Below are positions 1-32,404 of a stretch of 43,512 bases of DNA, one piece after another. The stretch lies in the IMG/VR virus record IMGVR_UViG_2690315815_000009. One strand, written 5' to 3'. The first letter of the stretch is position 1. The number at the start of each line of letters is the position of its first letter. The translations under genes were made by a program, and so were the position numbers. The DNA comes from a virus (Duplodnaviria; Heunggongvirae; Uroviricota; Caudoviricetes). Under the pieces are notes generated by a model that worked only from the letters and a program-made list of their open reading frames with translations, had not been told where the DNA came from and ran no database searches.

Positions 1-324
1 TTACTCCAGAGACAGCCGAACCGAAAAACCGTTTTCAGCGAGCGTCAGACTCAGTGTGTTGATAGTCCAGTCCCGGTCCTCCTCGGTCCCGAAACCTTGA
101 GTTGTGACTTTGCATTCTGCTGTCAGCGACACTAAATCGAGCGTCGCTGGCGTCGTGTACGTCATAGAGAACTCTTTTTTAGCTGCACCGCCCTTGAGCC
201 CTGGTGCAGCTTCTTTCGCTGCGTCGAGCGACGGCTCAACTGCCGGCCATTCAATGACAGGATCGCCGCCACTACCTTGTCCGCAATTCTTTGATCTGCC
301 CAGTTGCTGTGTCGTGATATTTAA
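1..324 (-). pseudogene. C-terminal segment of P2-type tail protein gpD (late control gene D family), in a different frame from the N-terminal part
   Basis: Minus-strand frame ending in TAA at 1-3 is open up to 324 and translates to ...EFSMTYTTPATLDLVSLTAECKVTTQGFGTEEDRDWTINTLSLTLAENGFSVRLSLE, resembling the gpD C-terminus as I recall it (QGF...DWTI...GF). It overlaps the 272..1045 ORF, which stops at 272-274 in another frame. Confidence 0.45.
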
Positions 325-1045
325 TCAGATACGTCGGTTCCGGATTTTCGCCACCGCTACCACTATCGCCACTTTGTCCATTTCTCGAATAGCCCCAGCT
401 GGAGTTATCACGACGAGTTAGCGTGTAGTGCTGGAGCGGAGCACCGCTAACAGATTCGCCCGCGCCGCGCGGCAGGAATATCCAGTACCCGCCCGCGGGT
501 TTACTCACCGCATCGAATCTCGTTGCGAGCCGCGACATCAGGTGCATATCTGACTCGCCGACCTGATCGAGTTGCGTGATAACATTGTCTGCAAACCGCT
601 TTGATACGCGTGGTTTTAGCCCATTATCGCTCGCTATTGTCGCAACGATATCGCTGACAGTGACGTCGCTCCAGGAACGAGTCTTTTTGCTCTGAACTGT
701 CGGAGATCCTTTTGCTGCGTTCATCGGAGCCGCTTTTGCTGTGAAATCAACTACCCGGGGTTCACCGCCACTGCTAGCACCGTCAACGATGTATATCCCT
801 TTATCAATTATCTGATTACCGAAACCGAGCCCAATACTGATTTTTACTCCGCGGGCCGGAATTTTCAGAGTTTCAGAAACTATTGCTACGCGGAGTTCGT
901 CTGTCTGTTTACTGGAGCCGCCGTAATCTGTCAGCGTGATATTGATCAAACCTTTTCTTATTTTATCCGTGATGTTTTTATTATCAGCAGATATATAAAA
1001 ATTAGGTTTCCACGCCTCCATGCCAGTATTTACGTAATCACTCAT
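272..1045 (-). CDS. Tail protein gpD (phage late control gene D family), N-terminal about 257 aa; reading frame breaks near 274-324
   Basis: 257-aa ORF whose sequence pattern (ITLTDYGG..DEL.., ..ESDMHLMSRLATR..) resembles the P2 gpD family; last gene of a P2-type tail operon after U and X. Confidence 0.75.
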   Translation of the reverse strand: MSDYVNTGMEAWKPNFYISADNKNITDKIRKGLINITLTDYGGSSKQTDELRVAIVSETLKIPARGVKISIGLGFGNQIIDKGIYIVDGASSGGEPRVVDFTAKAAPMNAAKGSPTVQSKKTRSWSDVTVSDIVATIASDNGLKPRVSKRFADNVITQLDQVGESDMHLMSRLATRFDAVSKPAGGYWIFLPRGAGESVSGAPLQHYTLTRRDNSSWGYSRNGQSGDSGSGGENPEPTYLIKYHDTATGQIKELRTR

Positions 1046-1048
1046 TCA

Positions 1049-1273
1049 TCAATCCCATAATTGCGTTTCTTTTTTAACCGGCTCTGGTTCGATATCTGGT
1101 AAAACAATTTTTTCTCCAGCACGAAACACGGCACACATATCCGTTACGCCGTAATTCGAAACCTGATATAAAACAGTCTCTGTCGTTTTTGACGCTCTCC
1201 CGTAGACCGCAAGGCAGATCTGATCGAGACGGTCACCGTCCCGTGTAGTGTATGTAATCATTTGGGGCCCCAT
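1049..1273 (-). CDS. Tail protein X (P2 gpX-like, LysM-type)
   Basis: 74 aa; resembles P2 gpX (LDQICLAVYGR...TVLYQVSNYG...IVLPDI); sits between U and D as in R-pyocin/phiCTX-type tail clusters. Confidence 0.75.
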   Translation of the reverse strand: MGPQMITYTTRDGDRLDQICLAVYGRASKTTETVLYQVSNYGVTDMCAVFRAGEKIVLPDIEPEPVKKETQLWD

Positions 1274-1434
1274 TAATTAAAAGGATTTCATAATGAGAAT
1301 TAATTTTAGTAGTCGGAGAGGTATTAGTATTTCGGCGTCAAAAAAAATACCATCAGGTTGTTTTACATTTATGTTCGTAGTTTTTTTTATTATTTTTATA
1401 CTTGTTAAGTGCTCTGGTAGCGCTTGATTTTGTA

Positions 1435-1863
1435 TTAATCTAGCGAAGCTCCATAATATTCGAGCGTGAGTGAAAAGTCCTGCGATTTAGGTGTTCCGCC
1501 CATCAAAAAGCTGTTTTGCGTTTCAGTTAGTTCTCGCAGCACCCAGTACCCTTTCACCTCCCCGGTCCCCAGCACTAGCTGCTGGGGTTCTCCCGTGTTC
1601 CCGAGCGCTCGCAAATCTGTCAACAGGCCGACGCCGCACCCGTCAAGAAATAAAGCGTTTATCTTTCCATCGATAGTAATTGTGGGGTTCGGTCGTCCGG
1701 TTATCTGCAACGCGTCGTTTTTCCCGAATCGTGTTTGCTGAGCCCAGCGCCAGGCGTCACTACGTTGCAGTTTGTTGTACGCTACTGTTGATATAGCAAA
1801 AATGAAATCACCCAGGCCGAGCATGATATCCTCAGCACCGTTTATTGCATCACTCATTGTCAC
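1435..1863 (-). CDS. Tail protein gpU (P2 U-like)
   Basis: 142 aa immediately downstream of the tape measure gene with a 4-nt overlap; size and position match gpU. Confidence 0.65.
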   Translation of the reverse strand: MTMSDAINGAEDIMLGLGDFIFAISTVAYNKLQRSDAWRWAQQTRFGKNDALQITGRPNPTITIDGKINALFLDGCGVGLLTDLRALGNTGEPQQLVLGTGEVKGYWVLRELTETQNSFLMGGTPKSQDFSLTLEYYGASLD

Positions 1864-3500
1864 CCCGCCGCAGCTGGTTTATCAAACATCGCGCCACGAT
1901 TGTACGAACTCGCAGCCTGTCTCAGTCCATCGAGCACCCCCGACGCTGCAGATTGTTGTATTGACTGCGGATCTGTCGCACCGACAATATTGATTTCGAT
2001 TTTATTGTTTTGCTCCGGCGCAGGTGTCGAGACTGCCTGCTTCAACGTATCAATATTTAACGTCGACGAATCCAGTGCTGCAGGCGCGGTATTTTTATTT
2101 ACCATCCCGGATAATGGATTAACAAACGCGAGCATTGATTCTGCCTGAGATTTTGCCTGTTCTTGCCGTTCTGGATGCCGCATATTTTCGACAGCCTCTT
2201 CGGCTTTTGCCTTCGCAATATTATCAGCAGTCAATCCAGCGTTCGGTGAATATTTACCTCCCGAATCCATAAACTCTTGATATGCCCGATTATATTCGTC
2301 ATTATAAGTTTTCTGTTCTTCATCTGATTTTTCATCCGGAATAAGCCACTCCAGTTTCTTTACGACAGCCCATATAATCTTCCCGAATTTGACGCAACCT
2401 TCTCCAAAATTGACGATGCCATCCCACATTTTTTTCATATTTTCTGGTTTTACCCACTCAGTAATTGTGCTGACAAAACCACCCTGATTATCCTTAAACC
2501 AGGATGTAAATGTTTCACGTACTGAGTCAAACGTCGGCGCGAGTTCCCCCCCGATTTTACCGAGTGTATCTGCAAGTCCCGACGTAATAGAGCCCCACAG
2601 ATTTGTCACTGATACATGCGCACGCGCCGCCCCTTCCGCACCCTCTTTTGTTAACAAATTCGACTTTTGCGCGTCAGACATTGTCTGTTCCCAGCTTTTA
2701 CCCGTCGCCTTCATATACGTCATGATCTTATTAGCCTCGCCCCCCATGAGCTGGTCAGCGAGGCTCGCCGCTTGCTTCTCATCTTTCATTTCAGAGATGC
2801 GACGCATAACCTCATTAAACTGTTTTTCCCGATCCCAGCCAGCCATTCGTTTTTTCGTCAGGCCAATTTGAAATAACATGGGATTCAGGCTTTTTTCGTT
2901 TCCGATTTCGCCGATTTTATTTGTAAGTTCTTCAGACAAATCCCCGATATTTTCGCCGTTCAGGCCCGCGGCTTTACCAATATTTTCCCACGCAGCGTAT
3001 TTTTCGACGCCAACGCCGTAGGACTTCGCCAGACCGAGTTTTTCTGACGTCTCTGCATTCATTGCCAGCGCACCAGCTGCAGCACCGCCAATGAGCCCTG
3101 CCGCGCCAAGTGTCCCCCATTTGATACCCCGCCCCGTAGCCCTCACCGCACCTGCGGCGGCTCGTCCGCCCCATTTTGCAGCTCCTTTTGCGCGACCCGT
3201 CCACTTCTCCAGCCGCTGTTTTTTAGCAAGTTGAGTATTCAGCGCCTCCTGGTCCTGCGTTGTCGCTTTTATTCGACGGTCCAGCTTTTGATACTGAGCA
3301 GATAAATCAGAAACGTCTTTACCTGCCAGTTTCATTGCTGCGATTTTGTCTTTTAATTTATCCTGACTTTTCGTTAATTTCCCGACAGTAGACGACGTCT
3401 GCCGAATCGCATCATTGAGTTCTGTTGTACCGCGACGAAACGACGGGTCTATTCGCCCACCGAATACAACCTGCGTTTTAAAGTTTTGAGAAATAGCCAT
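1860..3500 (-). CDS. Tail tape measure protein
   Basis: 546 aa, Ala/Gly/Lys-rich with coiled-coil character and a Gly/Ala-rich membrane-like stretch; lies between the tail chaperone E gene and U. Confidence 0.75.
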   Translation of the reverse strand: MAISQNFKTQVVFGGRIDPSFRRGTTELNDAIRQTSSTVGKLTKSQDKLKDKIAAMKLAGKDVSDLSAQYQKLDRRIKATTQDQEALNTQLAKKQRLEKWTGRAKGAAKWGGRAAAGAVRATGRGIKWGTLGAAGLIGGAAAGALAMNAETSEKLGLAKSYGVGVEKYAAWENIGKAAGLNGENIGDLSEELTNKIGEIGNEKSLNPMLFQIGLTKKRMAGWDREKQFNEVMRRISEMKDEKQAASLADQLMGGEANKIMTYMKATGKSWEQTMSDAQKSNLLTKEGAEGAARAHVSVTNLWGSITSGLADTLGKIGGELAPTFDSVRETFTSWFKDNQGGFVSTITEWVKPENMKKMWDGIVNFGEGCVKFGKIIWAVVKKLEWLIPDEKSDEEQKTYNDEYNRAYQEFMDSGGKYSPNAGLTADNIAKAKAEEAVENMRHPERQEQAKSQAESMLAFVNPLSGMVNKNTAPAALDSSTLNIDTLKQAVSTPAPEQNNKIEINIVGATDPQSIQQSAASGVLDGLRQAASSYNRGAMFDKPAAAG

Positions 3501-23243: not shown

Positions 23244-23290
23244 AATGCCACAACCTGTATATTTATGGGTCTTCCCCTGTTGTGGTGGGT
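23244..23290. repeat. IS left terminal inverted repeat
   Basis: Matches the reverse complement of 25131-25177 with a 3-bp indel and a few mismatches. Confidence 0.6.
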
Positions 23291-23365
23291 GGTACATAAT
23301 TGAGCGATTTTCAAACACCACACAGTACCTTTATGGTGTCTCTTTTTACATGAGAGGGAATTCTT

Positions 23366-23884
23366 ATGAGTGTGCCGCAAACAAAAGCTGAACTGCTTTT
23401 AGCTATTGATAAAAATTTTAGTAAATTAATTAGTTACCTCAACACAATCCCACCAGAAATTACTTCAGATAAATCAATGGACGGACACGCCAAAGGAACG
23501 GAGATGAGTGTTCGTGATCTCGTTTCGTATCTGCTTGGATGGAATGCTCTTGTTGTAAAGTGGATCGCTTCTGATGCTAAAGGTCTGCCTGTCGATTTTC
23601 CGGAAACTGGCTATAAATGGAATCAGCTTGGCCTTCTTGCTCAAAAATTTTACTCAGATTACAGTGAGTTAAGTTATGAGTTGTTAGTAGCTGAACTTCA
23701 GACTGTAAAAAATGAGATTGTGAACCTTATTAATGATCGTACCGATGATATTTTGTATGGAAGACCATGGTACACAAAATGGACGATGGGGAGAATGATC
23801 TCATTTAACACATCTTCGCCTTACGCCAACGCTAATGGAAGATTAAGAAAGTGGGCAAAAAATAATAATATCAGTTTAAAGTAA
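23366..23884 (+). CDS. ClbS/DfsB-family protein (DUF1706), passenger gene of the IS
   Basis: 172 aa; pattern GHAKGT..SV.DLVSYLLGW ... YGRPWYTKWTMGRMISFNTSSPYANANGRLRKW resembles the colibactin self-resistance protein ClbS family; GAGGGAA SD upstream. Confidence 0.7.
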   Translation: MSVPQTKAELLLAIDKNFSKLISYLNTIPPEITSDKSMDGHAKGTEMSVRDLVSYLLGWNALVVKWIASDAKGLPVDFPETGYKWNQLGLLAQKFYSDYSELSYELLVAELQTVKNEIVNLINDRTDDILYGRPWYTKWTMGRMISFNTSSPYANANGRLRKWAKNNNISLK

Positions 23885-23902
23885 GCTTCAGAATGAAATT
23901 AT

Positions 23903-25123
23903 ATGGACGAAAAATCCCTCTATGCCCATATCCTTAACCTGACTGCACCATGGCAGGTTAAATCCCTTACCCTCGATGAAAATGCAGGTTCCGTTACTGT
24001 TACAGTCGGAATTGCTGAAAATACTCAGTTAACCTGTCCGACCTGCAGGAAATCCTGTTCTGTTCACGATCACCGACATCGTAAATGGCGCCACCTTGAT
24101 ACCTGCCAGTTCATGACATTAGTAGAAGCCGATGTTCCCCGCGTTATGTGCCCGGAGCATGGCTGCCAGACTCTGCCTGTACCGTGGGCAGGTTCCGGCA
24201 GTCGGTACACTCTGCTGTTCGAATCGTTCGTGCTCTCATGGCTTAAAATCAGCACCGTTGATGCGGTCAGAAAACAACTTAAACTTAGCTGGAATGCCGT
24301 TGACGGCATCATGACCCGCGCGGTTAAGCGAGGCCTGTCGCGGATTAAAAAGCCTTTATCAGTGCGTCATATGAATGTAGACGAAGTCGCCTTTAAAAAA
24401 GGGCATAGGTATATAACCGTGGTATCTGATCGCGACGGGCGGGCACTGGCATTAACCGATGATCGTGGCACAGAGAGTCTTGCCAGCTATCTCCGTTCGC
24501 TTACTGACAGTCAGTTGTTGGCCATCAAAACACTGTCGATGGACATGAATGCGGGCTATATAAGAGCAGCGCGTATCCATTTACCCAATGCGGTCGAGAA
24601 AATCGCCTTCGATCGCTTCCATGTGGCGAAGCAACTGGGCGAAGTGGTTGATAAAACCCGCCAGAATGAACATCCGCACCTCCCTGTTGAAAGTCGTCGT
24701 CAGGCCAAAGGTACCCGCTTCCTGTGGCAGTACAGCGACAAATGGATGACTGAGTCCCGGCAGGAAAAGCTGATGTGGTTGCGGGAACAGATGCAACAGA
24801 CAAGCCAGTGCTGGACACTGAAAGAGCTGGCAAAAAATATCTGGGATCGCCCCTGGAGCACAGAACGCAGGAATGACTGGTTGCAGTGGATATCGCTGGC
24901 GTCTGAATGTGATGTGCCGATGATGAAAAACGCAGCGAAAACCATTAAAAAACGGTTATACGGAATACTGAATGCAATGCGTCATCGCGTCTCGAATGGA
25001 AATGCGGAGGCGCTGAACAGCAAGATCAGACTGCTGAGGATAAAGGCCAGGGGATACCGAAACCGGGAACGCTTTAAACTGGGAGTTATGTTCCACTATG
25101 GGAAACTGAATATGGCGTACTGA
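23903..25123 (+). CDS. ISL3-family transposase
   Basis: 406 aa; N-terminal Cys/His zinc-finger-like region (CPTCRKSCSVHDHRHRKWRHLD...CPEHGC) and C-terminal NAEALNSKIRLLRIKARGYRNRERFK typical of ISL3 transposases. Confidence 0.85.
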   Translation: MDEKSLYAHILNLTAPWQVKSLTLDENAGSVTVTVGIAENTQLTCPTCRKSCSVHDHRHRKWRHLDTCQFMTLVEADVPRVMCPEHGCQTLPVPWAGSGSRYTLLFESFVLSWLKISTVDAVRKQLKLSWNAVDGIMTRAVKRGLSRIKKPLSVRHMNVDEVAFKKGHRYITVVSDRDGRALALTDDRGTESLASYLRSLTDSQLLAIKTLSMDMNAGYIRAARIHLPNAVEKIAFDRFHVAKQLGEVVDKTRQNEHPHLPVESRRQAKGTRFLWQYSDKWMTESRQEKLMWLREQMQQTSQCWTLKELAKNIWDRPWSTERRNDWLQWISLASECDVPMMKNAAKTIKKRLYGILNAMRHRVSNGNAEALNSKIRLLRIKARGYRNRERFKLGVMFHYGKLNMAY

Positions 25124-25130
25124 GTCTTCC

Positions 25131-25177
25131 CACCATGATCGGGGAAGACCCATATTTATACAGTATTTTATGGCATT
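25131..25177. repeat. IS right terminal inverted repeat
   Basis: Reverse complement matches 23244-23290; begins 8 nt after the transposase stop codon. Confidence 0.6.
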
Positions 25178-27291: not shown

Positions 27292-27897
27292 ATGCCATCG
27301 GATGACGATTTTAACAGCCGTTTCAAACAGGAAGTAGCACGCAGACTGAAGGATTCCCTCAACCTACACCGTCAGTTAGCAGAAGAGGTTGAGCCGGAGG
27401 ACGATGAAACTCCGGTTCAGTCTCCTGACGAAGCTTCACCTCAGCCAAAGGTTTCGCACGCCCCCAAAAAAACGGCTGTCCGTATTCGCGGAATAGCCAG
27501 AAAAAGAGCTGCCGAAGCTCGCAAAATGGCTGTAGCTGCGTCTAGCAAAAGAATTCCAACTGCTACACCCTCTCAACAAGTCACCCGTACTGAGAGTAAA
27601 ATCTTGACCGAGTTCACATCTGTGAAACAGGTGAATTCACTTGATACCGAGCATGAGCGCAAACAACTCAACAACAAAGATTTTGAAGCAGAAATCGCTC
27701 TAAAAAAACGATACGGGAAATGGTTCCTGATTATCCTTGCTTTCCAACTTCTGATAATGAATGGTGTATTTATTGCCGACGGCGCAGGTAAGCTGGAATT
27801 TGAGGATTTAACACTACAGTTGTACATGGGCGGTACTTTGACAGAGGTATTCGGCCTCGTGCTGGTCGTGACAAAATACCTTTTTAAACGCAAGTAA
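27292..27897 (+). CDS. Membrane-anchored protein of unknown function, co-transcribed with the ImmA/IrrE peptidase
   Basis: 201 aa; basic, probably disordered N-terminal two-thirds, then two C-terminal hydrophobic helices (WFLIILAFQLLIMNGVFIA, TLTEVFGLVLVVTKYLF); starts 10 nt after the ImmA stop. Confidence 0.55.
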   Translation: MPSDDDFNSRFKQEVARRLKDSLNLHRQLAEEVEPEDDETPVQSPDEASPQPKVSHAPKKTAVRIRGIARKRAAEARKMAVAASSKRIPTATPSQQVTRTESKILTEFTSVKQVNSLDTEHERKQLNNKDFEAEIALKKRYGKWFLIILAFQLLIMNGVFIADGAGKLEFEDLTLQLYMGGTLTEVFGLVLVVTKYLFKRK

Positions 27898-31217: not shown

Positions 31218-31242
31218 AGTCATCAAGTGCATATGTAACTGT

Positions 31243-31319
31243 TTTATATGGGCGGTACTTTGACAGAGGTATTCGGTCTCGTGCTGGTCGTGGTCAAATA
31301 CCTTTTTAAGCGCAAATAG
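31243..31319 (+). repeat. Duplicated copy of the 3' end of the 27292..27897 gene (about 93 percent identical over about 72 nt)
   Basis: ATGGGCGGTACTTTGACAGAGGTATTCGG(T/C)CTCGTGCTGGTCGTG...TACCTTTTTAA(G/A)CGCAA(A/G)TA(G/A) occurs at both 27826-27897 and 31248-31319. Confidence 0.6.
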
Positions 31320-32180: not shown

Positions 32181-32404
32181 TCATCTGGTGGTGAGCTGTG
32201 CAGGGTTGGCGTAACCGGCTAAGTGAACCCGGCGCTTCCACAGAAGCCCCCACACAGCCCACCATAATGCGAATGTGGCCGTGCCTAACACATAAAAAAA
32301 CCGCTAACGCGGCTATGCGTCACTTAGATATCCGGGACGCCAATCCCGGCAACCGATTTTGCGGCTGCGCGGAAACTATAGCCCCGGACTTTTTCTAAGT
32401 CAAT

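Follow-up and report, generated by a model that had tools for sequence, protein, structure and literature searches.

The gpD reading frame is split in two

The window analysed here is a stretch of 43,512 nucleotides of tailed-phage DNA (IMG/VR record IMGVR_UViG_2690315815_000009), the first kilobase of which holds the tail gene gpD on the minus strand, in two pieces. The 5' part of this baseplate hub gene (272..1045 in the ORF listing) starts with an ATG at 1045-1043, runs through sense codons to 275 and ends, after 257 codons, at a premature TAG (274-272). The 3' remainder (1..276) lies in a frame offset by +1 and corresponds to residues 257-347 of the intact protein, followed by a TAA at 3-1. 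This second frame stays free of stops from 324 to 4, a length of 107 codons, and reads ...GQGSGGDPVIEW...QGFGTEEDRDWTI...GFSVRLSLE, its translation also being given as ...GQGSGGDPVIEWPAVEPS...QGFGTEEDRDWTINTLSLTLAENGFSVRLSLE. When the two pieces were aligned with a 348-aa Salmonella homologue (P0007), they matched it end to end: residues 4-255 of the N-terminal product aligned with residues 8-256 of P0007 at 75% identity (E = 2e-142), and the C-terminal piece with residues 250-348 at 70% identity (E = 4e-49), an agreement far beyond chance. Minus-strand translation, joined by the P0007 alignment in the case of the second piece, confirmed the initial annotation in both respects, namely a gpD N-terminus of 257 codons stopping at TAG 272-274 and a gpD-like C-terminus in another frame, open from 324 to the TAA at 1-3.

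Between 324 and 166 the +1 frame contains no ATG, GTG or TTG. The sole start-led stretch in the remainder is a 54-aa ORF (1..165, minus strand) with its ATG at 165-163 and, since there is no start codon before 165, residues 257-293 of gpD cannot be made separately. The 107-aa C-terminal frame drew no match from Pfam or NCBIfam and was identified only by homologue alignment. An Rfam search of positions 1-1045 at gathering thresholds gave no match, and promoter and terminator scans over positions 1-1900 were at chance level (2 against 2.1 expected and 2 against 1.8 expected).

The genes upstream of gpD lie on the same strand. Immediately upstream is the gene for a LysM-like tail protein X (1049..1273; PF05489, 56.4 bits, E = 2.3e-15), followed by that for a gpU-family tail protein (1435..1863; PF06995, 108 bits) and by a 546-aa ORF (1860..3500) that stands between the tail assembly protein and gpU, the tape-measure position of a P2-like tail operon, and for which a Pfam scan gave nothing above threshold. 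Within the contractile-tail operon gpD takes the distal position, behind the tape measure, gpU (PF06995) and gpX (PF05489), with sheath, tube and the baseplate genes V/W/J/I further upstream.

A single extra base separates the two frames. Where intact alleles read GGACAGG the window has GGACAAGG, with AA in place of a single A, and this extra A (277..278, minus strand) changes the reading at codon 257 from ACA-GGT-AGT (T-G-S) to ACA-AGG-TAG (T-R-stop). The site was fixed by alignment with the GenBank record ON470604.1, in which the extra A is the only difference from the window in the critical gpD interval, and by comparison with strain ZH063. This bore out the 1-nt indel that had been predicted to lie within 274-324, and the alignment to intact gpD homologues that had been proposed as the means of locating it placed the extra A at 277/278.

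At the DNA level, only four GenBank 'phage' records match the gpD region, all of which were predicted by PHASTER in draft genomes and do not derive from sequenced virions. Three of these (ON470596, ON470624 and ON470627; Illumina/SPAdes) have 1,300 nt in the gpD region, the same as the window, and carry the frameshift allele; they annotate a 774-nt 'tail formation protein D' and a separate 165-nt 'Gene D protein', with the 54-aa ORF labelled 'hypothetical protein / Gene D protein' in ON470596.1. In the fourth, ON470604.1, which has one base fewer, gpD is a single gene of 1,044 nt encoding 347 aa. Among run-level assemblies, the 257-aa gpD product forms a protein cluster (P0009) of 135 member sequences.

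The intact protein as a P2-gpD-type baseplate hub

A search with the 347-aa intact gpD as query yielded 102 proteins at E ≤ 1e-5. About 95 of them are complete gpD homologues, single proteins of 323-442 aa whose alignments, with few exceptions, span over 90% of the query, and every complete homologue, down to 25% identity, is a single ORF. The sole complete short entry is the 257-aa ST131 fragment itself, the other short entries being a small number of incomplete sequences, labelled 'partial' by the source in at least three cases. From these lengths it follows that gpD homologues are not naturally short.

In a direct Pfam scan against PF05954, the 'late control gene D' family (gathering threshold 30.1), intact gpD scored 23.8 bits and the N-terminal fragment 22.4 bits, while nearly all gpD homologues carry a precomputed PF05954 assignment. 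Because the score falls below the threshold, family membership rests on the homologue network and on the fold. With phmmer, intact gpD matched the R2 pyocin hub (6U5H) at E = 2e-22. An AlphaFold model of intact gpD, built with 70 homologues, reached a pLDDT of 84 and a pTM of 0.76; in this model, residues 258-347 form five strands and a long helix (pLDDT ~81-94). Searching structures with the model using Foldseek gave the R2 pyocin hub as the top match (6U5H_A; E = 9e-21, TM 0.66-0.71), and the baseplate-hub matches 6U5H, 1WRU, 9KI1, 1K28 and VgrGs all had a probability of 1.00. Matches over the whole length of the fold came from R2 pyocin, Mu gp44, P1, T4 gp27, VgrG, PVC and AFP, so that, in the model, a gp27-like hub fold spans the whole of intact gpD. 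By its homologue network and fold, the intact protein is a P2-gpD-type baseplate hub.

Like P2 gpD and the R2 pyocin hub, the ST131 gene stands at the end of a P2-type operon (sheath, tube, E, T, U, X, D), and its intact allele is likewise a single protein, of 347 aa. The P2-family (Peduovirus) gpD proteins, for instance those of Wphi and fiAA91-ss, are nevertheless only ~30% identical to it, and the window copy differs from both systems in being a frameshifted pseudogene. T4 gp27, Mu gp44 (1WRU, 9KI1), the N-terminal region of VgrG and PVC8/Afp8 match the model over its whole length (E = 1e-13 to 1e-20) but have no detectable sequence similarity to gpD (8-15% identity), and VgrG has a fused gp5-like or spike domain, whereas ST131 gpD is without one. 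By analogy with these proteins, gpD would act as a trimeric hub linking the spike to the tube. The intact 347-aa allele has the one-piece ORF of about 320-440 aa that is expected of the PF05954-type hub family; the gpD of the window, which breaks off at codon 257 and resumes in the +1 frame, does not, and is therefore a pseudogene of that family.

The split gene lies in a complete prophage

Positions 2,043,563-2,087,075 of the MNCRE44 chromosome agree with the window at every base, save for a small number of SNPs and an IS that is inverted. The element is a complete temperate-phage genome of ~43 kb, which in E. coli ST131 occupies the leuZ tRNA adjoining yecA, with its integrase beside the leuZ-cysT-glyW tRNAs. 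Its early and regulatory genes include repressor-like regulators, a replicative helicase and the antiterminator Q, and its lysis genes comprise holins and an endolysin. A lambda-type head module (terminase, gpW, portal, S49 protease, decoration protein, major capsid and FI) is combined with a P2-type contractile tail (V, W, J, I, fibre, sheath, tube, E, tape measure, U, X and D).

In the corresponding segment of ZH063 (L005), a 125-bp perfect direct repeat (1584-1708 and 44194-44318) overlaps the 3' part of the leuZ tRNA-Leu gene. This repeat marks attL/attR and bounds the prophage, and its position implies that the prophage runs ~0.8 kb past window position 1. The second-to-last prophage gene before yecA is gpD, one further gene, for a 139-aa hypothetical protein (WP_001296152.1), lying between the two; the window was evidently cut at gene boundaries. 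The collection searched contains no isolated phage of this prophage lineage, and in the literature we found neither a match of the element to one of the numbered EC958 prophages (Phi1-Phi7) nor a report of induction of this ST131 prophage.

The extra A is a derived state within ST131

To compare the two alleles across complete E. coli genomes we used a pair of reciprocal probes. A 62-nt probe centred on the insertion matched exactly in 364 of 5,426 genomes and with one gap in 69 more, and a 61-nt probe for the intact allele behaved the other way round, matching the 69 exactly and the 364 with a gap, so that the locus is borne by 433 complete genomes in total. In the 69 genomes with the intact allele the segment is 1 nt shorter, and the listed records show a full-length late-control or contractile-injection-system CDS.

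For six ST131 strains fimH types are available (PMC4933990). The frameshift is carried by MNCRE44 (H30R1), uk_P46212 (H30Rx) and CD306 (H30S), while an intact gpD of 347 aa (1,044 nt) is present in ZH063 (fimH35) and in G749 and SaT040 (both fimH22). In the case of ZH063, the same prophage with an intact gpD is found at the same site, and comparing this copy with the window across 41.6 kb gave 7 SNPs, the gpD indel and one 1.9-kb IS insertion; no SNP disrupts any gene, the other coding SNPs being missense or silent. Relatives at 92-95% DNA identity have annotations that include late-control (gpD) proteins. Given the intact gpD of the H22 and H35 strains and the annotations of these relatives, the extra A is derived.

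The distribution is most simply explained by one insertion event in the line that gave rise to H30 (clade C), at a time before fluoroquinolone resistance, a reading drawn from the six typed strains and extrapolated to the rest. A single origin is indicated because the typed H30 strains carry the extra A and the typed H22 and H35 strains are intact, and the timing because the H30S strain CD306, which is fluoroquinolone-susceptible, carries it too. In the published view, the prophages of ST131 were gained before clades B and C separated (PMC4850260), which fits the proposed timing of the insertion.

Further changes at the locus were seen in individual sequences. At position 1021 the window has a private SNP that converts gpD codon 9 from GTG to ATG (V9M), a second change in the broken gene; the codon is GTG in MNCRE44, CD306, ZH063 and ON470596, and a link between V9M and the frameshift was ruled out, since V9M is private to the window. 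In TUM2367 (NZ_CP135697.1), the homologue of window positions 1-1300 has an IS1 transposase in the gpD/gpX region and matches in 2 pieces over 2,077 bp, and in S931B (NZ_CP196521.1) it measures 1,298 nt and not 1,300. The lesions in these two strains are consistent with ongoing decay.

A disabled hub gene and the alternatives

Taken together, these data make it very probable that the split stems from a real insertion of one base in the hub gene gpD, transmitted vertically, and that it represents prophage decay. The insertion would have arisen once after the prophage was acquired and then been passed on by clonal inheritance. Translation of the altered gene would stop after 257 residues, and the last ~90 of the 347-aa hub would not be made. 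In P2-like tails the hub trimer nucleates the baseplate and the tube, and both P2 D and T4 gp27 are essential hub proteins required for tail assembly. Given this role of the hub, and given that the missing segment is well folded in the model, the truncated gpD is most likely non-functional; by analogy with these systems, the loss of a quarter of the hub fold would be expected to prevent the hub from forming and thereby the tail from being assembled. The H30 prophage would then still be able to excise, replicate, package its DNA and lyse its host, and would make no tails or infectious virions, which would render it a recently disabled, 'locked-in' element. To call the ST131 H30 element a defective prophage appears, from its sequence, to be a sound inference.

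It is conceivable, but we think very unlikely, that leaky +1 ribosomal frameshifting at ACA-AGG-UAG gives some full-length gpD and leaves the prophage partly viable. A slow rare codon followed by a stop is a context like that of known +1 sites (prfB CUU-UGA-C and Ty1 CUU-AGG-C), AGG being the rarest Arg codon in E. coli, and skipping one A would restore either wild-type gpD or a G257R variant, so that this context could in principle allow low-level +1 frameshifting. Inspection of the sequence, however, indicates that tRNA-Thr cannot re-pair from ACA onto CAA, where one of three positions would match, that tRNA-Arg moving from AGG onto GGU re-pairs at only two of three positions, and that upstream of the site there is no Shine-Dalgarno-like stimulator. 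Thus of the marks of programmed frameshifting neither a slippery site and stimulator nor a conserved two-frame layout is found at gpD, the two-frame arrangement not being conserved outside one clone. Transcriptional slippage at the lesion was likewise ruled out, as only two As are present and there is no A run on which it could occur. We give even less credence to the proposal that the premature stop is not absolute because ribosomes stalled at AGG-UAG occasionally shift +1 and yield sufficient full-length hub for a trickle of infectious particles; if this were true, the ST131-H30 prophage would be attenuated and not dead, and the insertion, as a change that defines the clade, would have tuned phage output in a pandemic clone without abolishing it.

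Programmed shifts in P2 (E/E+E') and lambda (G/GT) offer a useful comparison, since there too a frame in the tail operon continues in another frame. These are -1 shifts at conserved slippery sites in a chaperone gene and are conserved across phages, whereas the ST131 case involves a +1 offset in a hub gene, is absent from all relatives and stems from a recent insertion.

A natural two-gene layout, in which the 257-aa product is a functional hub, either alone or together with a separate C-terminal peptide, is in our judgement highly improbable. The NCBI annotation pipeline PGAP does treat the 257-aa ORF as an ordinary CDS, and the downstream 54-aa ORF has an ATG. Yet apart from the ST131 fragment cluster, the complete homologues are all single proteins that cover the C-terminal segment, and naturally short homologues with a separate downstream gene, the arrangement that the initial annotation had set against a lesion, were not found among them (323-442 aa). 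In addition, the downstream frame is startless before 165, so that ~37 residues (257-293) would be missing from any pair of products, the missing segment is a confidently folded part of the hub fold, and the split state is derived and confined to one clone.

The suggestion that the locus is a cluster or remnant of a tailocin (R-type bacteriocin), and not a prophage, is extremely improbable. Although the R2 pyocin hub is the closest solved structure to gpD by sequence and the window edge shows tail genes only, the same element has genes for terminase, portal, protease, decoration protein, major capsid, head-tail joining, holin and endolysin, as well as the antiterminator Q, the replicative helicase, repressor-like regulators and the integrase, and it is bounded by the 125-bp direct repeat overlapping leuZ. 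Because capsid, packaging, replication and integration genes are present, this is not a tail-only cluster, and the tailocin remnant contemplated in the initial annotation was not borne out, the head, packaging, lysis, replication and integrase modules being complete.

An error of sequencing or assembly, confined to one sequence, has a negligible probability as the source of the extra A: a single-base split of this kind is the usual signature of an indel error, but many laboratories have contributed to the 364 complete genomes in which the identical 62-mer with the extra A occurs, the frameshift allele occurs both in Illumina-only assemblies and in CD306, a strain selected for PacBio sequencing (PMC4933990), the lesion site is AA against A with no long homopolymer, the two alleles sort by fimH type in the six typed strains, and the gene is uninterrupted in sister strains and homologues. 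Pseudogenisation and a sequencing or assembly error had been offered as the two possible causes of the split, and with 364 genomes in agreement and intact copies in the sister lineages and homologues, the former stands and the latter does not.

The gpD frameshift is ordinary textbook prophage decay, caught very early. Cryptic E. coli prophages such as the P2 remnant of K-12 (with ogrK and the gpD fragment yegZ) also combine mutation of a structural gene with subsequent retention in the host lineage. The K-12 prophage remnants have lost most genes, whereas the ST131 prophage is at the earliest stage of decay, with one frameshift as the only gene-disrupting change relative to the clade-B copy and an additional intergenic IS in a subset of genomes.

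Current annotations hide the lesion

In RefSeq, PGAP presents the 257-aa fragment as a normal CDS, WP_001296153.1 (for example in NZ_CP010876.1 and NZ_CP135691.1), under the name 'hypothetical protein' or 'phage late control D family tail protein'; the 3' remainder of gpD is left unannotated, and there is no flag for a frameshifted pseudogene. This hides the defect from gene-content analyses. Similarly, PHASTER scored these regions 'intact', and they were deposited as phage genomes. In the literature we found no mention of this gpD lesion, and nothing on the two protein accessions or on EC958 together with leuZ. The extra A looks like a simple marker to tell the prophage copies of ST131 H30 (clade C) from those of H22/H35 (clade B). 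If the gene is disabled as we propose, H30 strains should release no infectious particles of this phage, a prediction that bears on induction, transduction and prophage typing.

Other features of the element

At 23267-25151 the window has an intergenic ISL3-family element with an ISEc53-like transposase (406 aa) and a ClbS/DfsB-like passenger ORF (172 aa). It is flanked by an 8-bp target duplication, ATATTTAT, and is absent from ZH063. MNCRE44 has the same element at the same site and with the same flanks, in the opposite orientation, and junction probes found the window orientation in 27 complete genomes and the other orientation in 33. The presence of both orientations at one site suggests that the element either inverted in situ or was inserted repeatedly.

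A stretch of 33 nt covering the 5' end of gpX and the sequence upstream of it (1254-1286) is 100% identical to annotated CRISPR sequence in E. coli S40 (NZ_CP010235.1) and GCM39-10-2-9-3-1. Read on the plus strand, it consists of 32 nt with an ATG in front, which could serve as a type I-E PAM, and by this sequence match some E. coli appear to carry a spacer against this phage family.

Finally, a locus on the minus strand at 32184-32381 matched the Rfam families isrK (80 bits), C4 antisense RNA (75 bits) and its a1/b1 target (53 bits). The isrK/C4 locus is a P1/P7-type antisense immunity module, and it adjoins a gene that in the MNCRE44 annotation encodes an ORF6N domain. In the early or immunity region there is also a 78-nt direct repeat (27816-27893 and 31238-31315), the two copies of which are 89.7% identical.
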